From: Shigella phage phiSD1
Sequence record: PQ571306
Length of the DNA: 42,072 nt
Strand: one strand, 5' to 3'
How positions within the stretch are numbered: position 1 is the first letter of the stretch; every line of letters starts with the position of its first letter. The notes under the pieces are model-generated. The model had not been told where the DNA came from and made no database searches. It saw only the letters and a program-made list of their open reading frames with translations. Positions 40,277 through 41,626 of this stretch are shown here, in pieces. Both the position numbers and the translations under genes were made by a program.

Positions 40277-40499
40277 CAATGTTACTCCTGTACTCCTGTA
40301 ACTTCTCCAGACTTTCAATTGCTTCCGCTAAGTCTGTCCCGGTATCCTTGTGTCCGCGAAGGCCCATACACAGTAGCTTCTTCAATGCGTGCTGTAGCGC
40401 CGGGTCGCGGATGTCGAAGGCGCGCAGCACATCGTAAACGTCTACAGTCATAGTGCTGCCGTGGGTGTTTGTCATTGTGCGGTTGTATTTTGAAGTCAT
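40269..40499 (-). CDS. Hypothetical protein (76 aa)
   Basis: ORF coupled to the phosphoesterase gene. Confidence 0.45.
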   Translation of the reverse strand: MTSKYNRTMTNTHGSTMTVDVYDVLRAFDIRDPALQHALKKLLCMGLRGHKDTGTDLAEAIESLEKLQEYRSNIDE

Positions 40500-41626
40500 C
40501 CCAACATCTCCGGTGAAATAGTTAAACGCGCGACCTCGCCATATTCGGCGCTATAAGTAATTACGTTTGCACTACGGCCCGACATCCATCCGCCGCGGGA
40601 GGCGTAGGCGTCTTTAGCCGCTAAGGTGCGGTGTTGCTCAACAATCATGTTACGGCTTTCTACAATCTTCTGGTGGTGCAGGTGGCCGACGTGGGCGTAG
40701 CTGTAAACACTCTCGCCGAACGCTTTGCGGAATTTGGCAATCATAACCGGTTCGATAGCATCGAATCGCGCCTTATGCCCGTGGTGAAAGAACAACGTCG
40801 TTTTTCCGTGTTGCACCATCTTGTAAACATCCGGCGACGTATCGACAATCACTCGGCTGTCGTTCGAATATAAAACTGTGAACATTTCAGCCAGCCATAC
40901 AGAGCCTACAGGGTCATGGTTCCCCTGTACGATAAGCAAGCGAACATTTTTATGTTTAACCAGTGCCATATCTACAACACGGCGTACCATACGAATCATG
41001 TAGCGGACGAGTTTCTGGTAGCGAGTGTCTGCGTCCAACACGTGACGCGACTCAGGTGTAACGGCATCCAGACTATCGAAGTGCGCGAAATCACCCAGCA
41101 GGTTAATAACTCCTGTTCCTGCATCCGGTGCTTTCTGAAACGCCGCATCGAACCAGCGAGAGAACAGGTCTTCCGCAATCTTCATATCCCAGTCGTCGCC
41201 GCTCTCGTCGGCCCATGCCAGCATACCGAGATGAAAATCAGATACCGTGTAAAGATTGAGTAGCTTGTCGTCGCGTTTGGCTCGAGTCGCTTTAACAGGG
41301 GTAACTGGCGTAATCTCCGACTTCATGCCCTCGATTACGGCCTTCATTAACTCTACCTGACGTTCGGCATCGGTGTCGGTCTTAACCCATTGCAACTTAG
41401 TGTTGCCGAACTCGTCCACTAGTGACGATGTTCCTTTAATCTTGTAGCCGTCTGGCACAAGGTGGCTAACGTCGCGCCCGTGGCCTACGCCTTTCTTAGC
41501 CAGCTTCGCTTTACGGATACGAATAACTCGGTCTGAGATGCCGTATTTACGGGCGATGTCTACATTCTTCATCCCGGCGTTCAATTCTTCCTGTAACTGT
41601 TCGTCGGTTATTTTCTTCTTGGCCAT
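40496..41626 (-). CDS. N-terminal HTH fused to calcineurin-like metallophosphoesterase
   Basis: HTH VDIARKYGISDRVIRIRKAKL; phosphoesterase motifs SDFH, GDFAHFD, GNHD, HHGH, GHLHH. Confidence 0.65.
   Translation of the reverse strand: MAKKKITDEQLQEELNAGMKNVDIARKYGISDRVIRIRKAKLAKKGVGHGRDVSHLVPDGYKIKGTSSLVDEFGNTKLQWVKTDTDAERQVELMKAVIEGMKSEITPVTPVKATRAKRDDKLLNLYTVSDFHLGMLAWADESGDDWDMKIAEDLFSRWFDAAFQKAPDAGTGVINLLGDFAHFDSLDAVTPESRHVLDADTRYQKLVRYMIRMVRRVVDMALVKHKNVRLLIVQGNHDPVGSVWLAEMFTVLYSNDSRVIVDTSPDVYKMVQHGKTTLFFHHGHKARFDAIEPVMIAKFRKAFGESVYSYAHVGHLHHQKIVESRNMIVEQHRTLAAKDAYASRGGWMSGRSANVITYSAEYGEVARLTISPEMLG

Follow-up and report, generated by a model that had tools for sequence, protein, structure and literature searches.

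Shigella phage phiSD1 (sequence record PQ571306) encodes a protein in which a helix-turn-helix (HTH) domain is joined to a calcineurin-like metallophosphoesterase, and the question raised by this locus is on which phosphoester bonds such a protein acts and what it does for the phage. The window, meaning the whole stretch of DNA that was analyzed, is 42,072 nucleotides long. An initial annotation, made from the sequence alone, described the fusion, pointed out that it comes without a Rad50-like partner, and offered three kinds of function: a nuclease or phosphatase acting on DNA ends, a protein phosphatase, or a phosphodiesterase degrading the nucleotide second messengers of host immune systems. 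The protein is predicted here, with a probability of roughly 0.5, to be a stand-alone DNA nuclease of the Mre11/SbcD/MPE type that is tethered to DNA by its HTH, independent of Rad50, and employed in phage replication, recombination, or end processing. The architecture of the protein, the conservation of its active site, its nearest folds, the absence of a partner, and the gene neighborhoods were observed directly, and from them we infer the nuclease activity, its substrate, and its biological role.

Catalytic Core and Active Site

The metallophosphoesterase core of the protein (Table 1) has the four-layer α/β-β/α sandwich fold of the calcineurin-like superfamily. In the AlphaFold model, built with 81 sequences in the alignment (predicted local distance difference test (pLDDT) 82.9; predicted template modeling (pTM) score 0.70), the core runs to the end of the protein at residue 376, with no C-terminal capping domain and nothing after it. 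The five superfamily motifs, D-x-H, G-D, G-N-H-[DE], H, and G-H-x-H, are all present and supply seven metal ligands: D130, H132, D179, N236, H282, H315, and H317. Conservation was assessed in 36 diverse homologs of 33–50% identity. D130, H132, D179, N236, H237, H282, and H317 are invariant among them, as is G314, and H315 is nearly so, being kept in at least 90%. H182, three residues after the motif II aspartate, occurs in 35 of the 36 and is invariant in alignments A2 and A3; H282, G283, and H284 are invariant in alignment A2. Because even homologs this distant have kept the metal ligands with hardly an exception, the family is predicted from its sequences to be an active enzyme. The initial annotation had staked its proposal on the conservation of these residues, and it is borne out: every motif that it quoted was found, and the family alignment and the AlphaFold model agree on an HTH followed by an intact calcineurin-like phosphoesterase.

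The loop that follows motif II retains T190, P191, L197, D198, and R202 as invariant residues in alignment A2, and its pLDDT falls below 50 at residues 188–190 and 194–199; it may form part of the substrate-binding site.

The domain calls are based on the family alignment, the AlphaFold model, fold searches, and a Pfam scan of 36 family members. A domain-profile search, which had been proposed as a check, gave a divided answer. The family profile phrog_704 covers nearly the whole protein (E = 2.4e-163; residues 4–375 against profile positions 2–389 of 390), but the Pfam models Metallophos (22.0 bits; cutoff 27), Metallophos_2 (17.2 bits; cutoff 21.5), and GerE (14.6 bits; cutoff 23.5) all stay under their gathering scores with the window protein alone. 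NCBIfam offers no model for the protein, and phmmer found no match to it in the PDB. In the scan of the 36 members, Metallophos was matched by 12 at E ≤ 0.01, and HTH models account for 22 of the 24 Pfam families matched. The family is a divergent branch of the calcineurin-like metallophosphoesterase superfamily, not a non-member. This divergence is the reason for the inconsistent database labels of the PHROG 704 family, whose members are variously called DNA repair exonuclease, phosphatase, calcineurin-like phosphoesterase, winged-HTH protein, and DNA polymerase II small subunit. The name of PHROG 704 itself, “DNA repair exonuclease”, is a homology-based label and is to be read as a prediction.

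Relationship to Characterized Nucleases

The best Foldseek match of the window protein model is Mre11 of Thermotoga maritima (TmMre11). Mre11/SbcD proteins make up the top fold matches, and nuclease-type folds appear to rank above those that would favor a cyclic-nucleotide phosphodiesterase. A profile of the catalytic domain, searched against all PDB sequences, matched only two metallophosphoesterases, T. maritima Mre11/SbcD and the Pseudomonas putida nuclease MPE. TmMre11, MPE, and the phage family share the motif forms D-x-H-[IL]-G, GD[FL]LH, and GNHD. Motif I aligns to sDWHLG in T. maritima Mre11/SbcD and to DVHIG in MPE, and motif II aligns to GDLLH in TmMre11 and to GDFLHA in MPE. The likeness extends to two histidines that are not metal ligands. 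In MPE, mutagenesis showed that His81 (motif II Asp+3) and His113 (of GNH) are essential for DNA cleavage and dispensable for bis-p-nitrophenyl phosphate hydrolysis (PMC7826289). Their equivalents in the window protein, H182 and H237, are both kept, and the active site is of the Mre11/SbcD type, including these histidines.

The same evidence bears on the proposal that the protein is a phosphodiesterase that destroys the second messengers of CBASS, Pycsar, Thoeris, or type III CRISPR immunity. Another phage metallophosphoesterase, D29 gp66, can hydrolyze cyclic AMP (PMC12287305) and provides a precedent, and the Kagunavirus gene is part of an accessory islet of variable content, a setting that suits such a role. 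We nevertheless regard it as improbable. Nuclease-type folds appear to rank higher, the histidine at motif II Asp+3 that MPE needs specifically for polynucleotide cleavage is kept, and a conserved HTH of DNA-binding type would have no role. The neighbors are DNA-metabolism genes and not known anti-defense genes, PADLOC returned no match for the phosphoesterase or its three islet neighbors, and the small siphoviruses of the Kagunavirus and T1-like groups have been described as sensitive to a broad range of defenses.

N-Terminal HTH and Middle Module

In the AlphaFold model, residues 8–44 form a three-helix bundle; the HTH string quoted in the initial annotation corresponds to residues 22–42. 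In the family alignments, no part of the protein is less conserved than the HTH, and the HTH matches of the homologs are spread over many different Pfam HTH models. The N-terminus is most aptly called a generic three-helix HTH; in the model, its geometry resembles that of LuxR and resolvases.

The HTH is followed by a family-specific middle module whose conservation is much above that of the HTH. It begins with a tether that is flexible yet conserved, G-[YS]-S-P-E-H-D-M-T, and continues with a long β-hairpin (residues 61–70 and 76–85; KGxSTLYxxDGxxxxQWVK) and a helix (residues 87–101). The consensus of tether and hairpin reads GYSPEHDMT..VPDGF.VKG.STLY..DG....QWVK, and G46, G65, S67, G74, Q79, W80, V81, and K82 are invariant. 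The module is modeled with a pLDDT of 89–94 in the N-terminal model, and a fold search with it gave no distinctive match and no recognizable structural relative. As a speculation, the hairpin and helix may stand in for the capping domain of Mre11.

A protein with such an N-terminus could be chiefly a DNA-binding regulator or a moonlighting cofactor, for example a regulator of late genes or of an origin, or, as with Bxb1 gp47, a directionality factor for recombination, the enzyme domain being secondary. The HTH is of the LuxR, sigma-region-4, or resolvase type, the protein weakly matches phrog_836, “late transcriptional activator”, the gene stands directly before Q, terminase, or lysis genes in several clades, and Bxb1 gp47 shows that a protein with the phosphoesterase fold can serve as a protein cofactor. 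This view is disfavored, and very improbable, because the catalytic residues are strictly invariant over thousands of sequences, a sign of selection on the enzyme, while conservation is lowest in the HTH. Furthermore, the gene coexists with Q in lambdoid loci, and Kagunavirus and T1 are virulent phages with no integrase to serve.

Family and Distribution

The gene is intact and belongs to the very common, already catalogued PHROG 704 or T1 gp16 family; it is not a new fusion, and the novelty implied by the initial annotation does not stand. The ortholog in coliphage T1 is gp16 (ST16), which matches phrog_704 with E = 7e-155. Kagunavirus phages encode proteins with 99% identity to the window protein, including the “DNA repair exonuclease” of the BASEL phage Bas75 (98.9%), and the DNA from 40000 to 42072 is 97% identical to phage SZH-1. 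The window genome is that of a Kagunavirus-like E. coli siphovirus of the Guernseyvirinae.

Near-full-length homologs occur in 2,036 phage records, with hosts that include Escherichia, Klebsiella, Salmonella, Vibrio, Campylobacter, and Rhodobacter. The phages that carry the family comprise Kagunavirus, Jerseyvirus, Drexlerviridae, and Webervirus as well as Vibrio, Rhodobacter, and Campylobacter phages. An exhaustive search yielded 4,559 clusters at 50% identity; most are 375–400 residues long, and the combination of HTH and phosphoesterase is therefore the norm of the family. The family is also present in the chromosomes of many Proteobacteria, where 95 loci were confirmed. Two bacterial loci that were checked with PHROG have a prophage setting: in a Pseudomonas the gene stands between RusA and Q, and in a Bordetella it precedes terminase and portal genes. 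Phage hallmarks were detected at 11 of 80 bacterial loci by tblastn with a few neighbor representatives, an insensitive test.

Gene Neighborhoods

Gene neighborhoods were surveyed in 80 IMG/VR loci (51–98% identity) that were found through alignment A2, and in all of them the phosphoesterase is the last gene of an early or DNA-metabolism block. In T1, a helicase, VRR-NUC, and Dam precede gp16, which is last in its operon and is followed by a terminator. The order in 14 lambdoid loci is NinB/Orf, NinG/Rap, phosphoesterase, and Q antiterminator, and in lambdoid phages and prophages RusA can replace NinG/Rap before the phosphoesterase and Q. The gene lies directly upstream of the terminase genes in the 73% clade and before a nucleoside deoxyribosyltransferase-like gene in the 60% clade. 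Phages with a T7-like RNA polymerase carry DNA polymerase, 5′-3′ exonuclease, endonuclease VII, the phosphoesterase, a HAD phosphatase, and a dATP/dGTP-pyrophosphohydrolase-like gene. A related group in which no RNA polymerase was detected has the same order, the HAD gene being followed by a deoxynucleoside monophosphate (dNMP) kinase and an ATP-dependent DNA ligase. The T7-like single-subunit RNA polymerase of four phages with the family (loci L056, L062, L070, and L071 of IMG/VR) is itself located at the end of the DNA-metabolism block.

Among the Kagunavirus relatives, the slot downstream of the phosphoesterase is variable. It holds a HAD phosphatase and a dNMP kinase in K1H (L003, 2109–4667) and in 13 of the 28 loci of at least 90% identity, the 76- and 72-residue open reading frames (ORFs) in the window and in Bas75, and an HNH endonuclease in other phages. 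By its gene content, the islet looks like a recombination hotspot for accessory genes. No SMC-like Rad50/SbcC ATPase was found in the window or among the large neighbors examined in the 80 related viral loci, as the initial annotation had supposed.

A recurrent neighbor is a 3′-phosphatase of the Pnkp type, which is present in 20 of the 80 loci and in three genome architectures. The best matches of this HAD protein are the 3′-phosphatase domains of Pnkp1 (E = 1.7e-6) and T4 Pnk (E = 1.8e-4). Two other identities were rejected. The K1H neighbor is not a true polynucleotide kinase; it is a HAD 3′-phosphatase domain (DLDGT) followed by a P-loop protein of the dNMP-kinase type. An assignment to 5′-nucleotidases like T5 Dmp was also dropped, as only the DxDGT motif aligns.

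These neighbors would also suit an end-healing phosphoesterase that removes 2′,3′-cyclic phosphates, 3′-phosphates, or other blocks from DNA or RNA in the manner of the metallophosphoesterase domain of bacterial Pnkp. This reading draws on the repeated adjacency of a HAD phosphatase of the Pnkp type and a P-loop kinase, to which three loci add an ATP-dependent DNA ligase. The metallophosphoesterase domain of Pnkp belongs to a lambda-phosphatase-like clade with the motifs GDxHG, GDxxDRG, and GNHE, and the phage motifs SDFHLG, GDFAH, and GNHD are unlike these. A second 3′-phosphatase beside the HAD phosphatase would be redundant, and the kinase is of the dNMP type (phrog_139), not a polynucleotide kinase. 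Such a function is distinctly unlikely.

The main rival keeps the nuclease chemistry and assigns it to early degradation of the host chromosome, which would shut off the host, blunt its inducible defenses, and supply dNMPs, as modeled on A10ZJ24 gp48 and T5 A1. Gp48 is a stand-alone phage metallophosphoesterase that is expressed early, breaks down DNA whether linear, circular, or genomic, and is needed against host defenses (PMC12287305). The dNMP kinase (phrog_139) that follows the gene in K1H and some distant loci, and that is also found in T1, fits nucleotide salvage, and the islet in the window is a transcription unit of its own outside the late operon. However, members of the family abound in the temperate lambdoid phages and prophages of Proteobacteria, which normally do not destroy the chromosome, and a sequence-specific HTH of the LuxR/resolvase type would be an odd tether for a bulk degrader. 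Gp48, gp47, and T5 A1 are related to the protein at the superfamily level only, and the HAD neighbor is a Pnkp-type 3′-phosphatase, not a Dmp-type 5′-nucleotidase. We judge host-DNA degradation to be possible but, on balance, unlikely.

The neighborhoods also bear on another function proposed initially, that of a protein phosphatase which, like NinI of lambda, would dephosphorylate Ser, Thr, or Tyr residues of host or phage proteins. The protein belongs to the same superfamily as lambda phosphatase, and in lambdoid relatives the gene is located in the nin region. The PPP signatures GDxHG, GDxVDRG, and GNHE are absent from the window protein, which has SDFHLG, GDFAHFD, and GNHD instead. In six IMG/VR and two bacterial loci, a separate NinI-like Ser/Thr phosphatase, which contains GDIHG, GDLVDRG, and GNHD and matches phrog_246, is encoded beside the phosphoesterase. 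The lack of PPP signatures and the presence of this separate gene therefore indicate that the protein is not the phage’s protein phosphatase, the least probable of all the readings. Two calcineurin-fold genes thus share one nin region (for example, L058, L060, L063, L065, and L066, and L155 and L159 in bacteria) and evidently do different jobs. Of the functions named by the initial annotation, that of a DNA nuclease is favored by the Mre11/SbcD folds, the histidines, and the neighbors, whereas the second-messenger option found no positive support and the protein phosphatase is disfavored.

Proposed Mechanism

As a stand-alone nuclease, the enzyme would be a DNA phosphodiesterase dependent on manganese or another divalent metal, with endonuclease activity, exonuclease activity, or both. 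Its own DNA-binding module would replace the Rad50/SbcC partner, and the LuxR/resolvase-like HTH, on its flexible tether, would hold the enzyme on DNA. The binuclear metal center formed by the seven ligands would activate a bridging water, and H237 would protonate the leaving group. H182 would position H237 or touch a flanking phosphate, as in MPE. The gene would be expressed from its own transcription unit, apart from the late tail operon around it. The substrates would be intermediates of phage DNA, such as ends, flaps, hairpins, or branched structures of replication and recombination, and the enzyme would operate in concert with the exonuclease, annealing protein, and resolvase of the phage. 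In relatives that carry them, the Pnkp-type 3′-phosphatase, dNMP kinase, and ligase would heal and seal the products. MPE-type nucleases leave mixed 3′-PO4 and 3′-OH ends (PMC7826289), which need healing before extension or ligation; a mixture of this kind would explain the recurrent 3′-phosphatase neighbor. Since temperate phages and prophages often carry the family, a role on phage DNA fits better than wholesale destruction of host DNA.

Several observations weigh against this stand-alone nuclease. The PDB matches of the catalytic-domain profile are weak (E = 0.03–0.3; TmMre11, E = 0.03–0.06), and hhalign assigns probabilities of 2.6% to E. coli SbcD, 14% to T5 A1, and 20% to Bxb1 gp47. By the values for TmMre11 and E. 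coli SbcD, the protein has no significant sequence homology to the Mre11/SbcD family, and its likeness to the characterized nucleases is one of motifs only. Mre11/SbcD proteins have a C-terminal capping domain, which the window protein lacks. The neighbors differ between clades and the context is suggestive only, and the 3′-phosphatase and kinase neighbors are absent from the window itself. The promoter-like site of the islet is called from its −10 hexamer alone. A literature search found no experimental study of the PHROG 704 or T1 gp16 family, and the gene is mentioned neither in a phage Tn-seq preprint nor in the BASEL-completion paper.

A further alternative, which we consider doubtful, is that of a self-contained substitute for Mre11-Rad50 in which a sequence-reading HTH directs the Mre11-like site to a specific phage or host target and the 3′-phosphatase heals the products. 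The target in the phage could be, for example, a cut that starts concatemer-forming replication or recombination. A target in the host chromosome could make gp16 the classical host-DNA-degradation function of T1. To our knowledge, that function, “gene 2.5”, has never been assigned to an ORF.

Genome and Islet in the Window

The first 141 bases of the window (1–141) are an exact repeat of the last 141 (41932–42072), and the window is therefore a complete phage genome of 41,931 bp that is circular or circularly assembled and terminally redundant. Its large non-structural genes encode a helicase, a DNA polymerase, a gp2.5-like annealing/single-stranded DNA-binding protein, a phrog_69 exonuclease, a helicase-primase, and a VRR-NUC-type resolvase. 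In Kagunavirus, the phosphoesterase is located in a four-gene islet that is antisense to the late operon; the tail tube gene flanks the islet on one side and the tail assembly chaperones on the other. Table 1 lists the features of the islet and of the protein.

Table 1. Coordinates of the phosphoesterase gene, its domains and motifs, and the other islet features in the window.
Feature	Position	Strand	Remarks
HTH-metallophosphoesterase gene, complete, 376 aa	40496..41626	minus	stop codon 40496-40498; ORF list and full-length phrog_704 match
Three-helix HTH, aa 1-45	41492..41626	minus	helices 8-16, 21-28, 32-44; basic recognition helix SDRVIRIRKAKLAKK
Family-specific middle module, aa 46-101	41324..41491	minus	tether, then β-hairpin, then helix
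Pro/Lys-rich linker, aa 102-118	41273..41323	minus	poorly conserved; no regular secondary structure in the models
Calcineurin-like binuclear metallophosphoesterase core, aa 119-376	40499..41272	minus	
Motif I, SDFHLG, aa 129-134	41225..41242	minus	ligands D130, H132; invariant
Motif II, GDFAHFD, aa 178-184	41075..41095	minus	bridging ligand D179
Loop LDAVTPESRHVLDADTR, aa 186-202	41021..41071	minus	conserved; low confidence; candidate substrate-binding loop
Motif III, GNHD, aa 235-238	40913..40924	minus	ligand N236; general-acid histidine H237; invariant
Motif IV, HHGH, aa 281-284	40775..40786	minus	ligand H282
Motif V, GHLHH, aa 314-318	40673..40687	minus	ligands H315, H317
−10 hexamer, perfect TATAAT	42057..42062 (repeated 126-131)	minus	about 40 nt upstream of first islet ATG
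108-aa protein, first islet gene	41692..42018	minus	phrog_14165; signal-peptide-like hydrophobic N-terminus MRKLVLALGFMSFATFG
76-aa ORF	40269..40499	minus	translationally coupled to phosphoesterase (ATGA)
72-aa ORF, last in islet	40100..40318	minus	no family match
Bidirectional intrinsic-terminator hairpin	40076..40095	both	AAGGCCCC-GAAA-GGGGCCTT; T-runs on both strands

A GAGGA Shine-Dalgarno sequence precedes the ATG of the phosphoesterase gene by 7 nt, and the TGA stop of the gene overlaps the start codon of the 76-residue ORF. The plus strand of 40496–41626 is full of stops in the same frame. The −35 element of the islet is weak and the site is only promoter-like; the same sequence is found in Bas75, and a sigma-70 scan detected no minus-strand promoter inside the window segment. 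The promoter-like region and the 108-residue gene span the genome junction. At the other end, the perfect 8-bp GC-rich hairpin is a strong terminator common to the converging tail tube gene and the islet.

The gene for the 108-residue phrog_14165 protein is always the first in the Kagunavirus islet, a position that is kept in K1H and Bas75. The protein has no Pfam or PADLOC match and, judging from its N-terminus, may be secreted or periplasmic, such as an exclusion factor. The 76-residue ORF matches only the C-terminal third (about 150–240) of several PHROG families of about 235 residues, one of which is labeled “ATPase”, and appears to be either a stand-alone C-terminal domain or a remnant of a longer gene. 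It fills the slot that is held in K1H by the Pnkp-type 3′-phosphatase and dNMP kinase, to which it is unrelated. An identity as a DUF3310 or dNTP-pyrophosphohydrolase-like domain found no support, with no Pfam match and no BLASTP alignment to c171, a neighbor at a distant locus.

Elsewhere in the genome, a 145-residue ORF (23592–24029, plus strand) matches phrog_1040, “peptidase HslV family” (E = 1.7e-34), which is unusual for a small siphovirus. Residues 445–538 of the 726-residue DNA polymerase (12785–14965, minus strand) match the “endonuclease” family phrog_93, and a 109-residue ORF downstream of the polymerase (12118–12447, minus strand) matches the adjacent part of the phrog_93 profile and a Holliday-junction-resolvase family. 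Such matches could simply be due to a composite PHROG; alternatively, a domain may have been inserted into the polymerase.

Significance and Comparison with Known Systems

The window gene is an ordinary family member, and its value lies in the contrast between the commonness of the gene and the scant knowledge of it, not in any peculiarity of the window. It is among the most widespread phage DNA-metabolism genes that lack a functional test, being carried by T1-like, Jersey- and Kaguna-like, Klebsiella, Vibrio, and Rhodobacter phages and by lambdoid prophages, groups that include many candidates for therapeutic phages and the BASEL model phages. A cleavage target, once shown, would replace guesswork labels such as “DNA repair exonuclease”, “phosphatase”, and “DNA polymerase II small subunit”, and could clarify how small siphoviruses without Mre11-Rad50 process DNA ends. 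If the enzyme degrades host DNA, it bears on the risk of transduction, and if it is a targeted nuclease, more than 2,000 sequenced phages carry an uncharacterized enzyme of this kind.

Among the systems with which the protein can be compared, T5 A1 shares a local “NHD..S.WL” stretch around motif III. A1 is a pre-early protein linked to host-DNA degradation and DNA transfer in the annotation of the T5 record. Unlike the window protein, it belongs to PHROG 1745, has 556 residues, and works with the T5 protein A2. The metallophosphoesterases of cluster A mycobacteriophages (Bxb1 gp47/L5 gp54 and A10ZJ24 gp48) are likewise stand-alone phage enzymes and, of the analogs studied by experiment, the nearest; gp47/gp54 are implicated in phage DNA replication and gp48 in host-DNA degradation, and the top fold matches of a stand-alone cluster A enzyme are Mre11 and DP1 (PMC11795197). 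In contrast to the window protein, they have about 255 residues and neither an HTH nor a hairpin module, and the hhalign match covers motifs III–V only, at the superfamily level. Bxb1 gp47 also doubles as an integrase directionality factor. Membership in one family with E. coli SbcD, T5 A1, or Bxb1 gp47 is not claimed, the hhalign matches being at the motif level.

The protein resembles Mre11/SbcD in the motif forms D-x-H-L-G, GD-x-x-H, GNHD, and GH-x-H and in its DNA-metabolism gene context. Mre11/SbcD pair with Rad50/SbcC, whereas the window protein is without such a partner and has an N-terminal HTH and a hairpin-helix module. The P. putida nuclease MPE, which is encoded in the Lhr-MPE repair operon (PDB 6NVO), is similar in being stand-alone, with neither a capping domain nor Rad50, and in its GDFLH and GNHD motif forms and both nuclease-essential histidines. 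The topology of its β-sandwich differs from that of Mre11 (PMC7826289). MPE has about 200 residues, no HTH, and a gene beside the Lhr helicase, unlike the window protein, which shares neither the Lhr-helicase repair-operon context nor the single domain of about 200 residues that mark the P. putida MPE clade. The closest counterpart is gp16 of coliphage T1, which belongs to the same family, has the same full-length architecture, and shows no difference of substance from the window protein.

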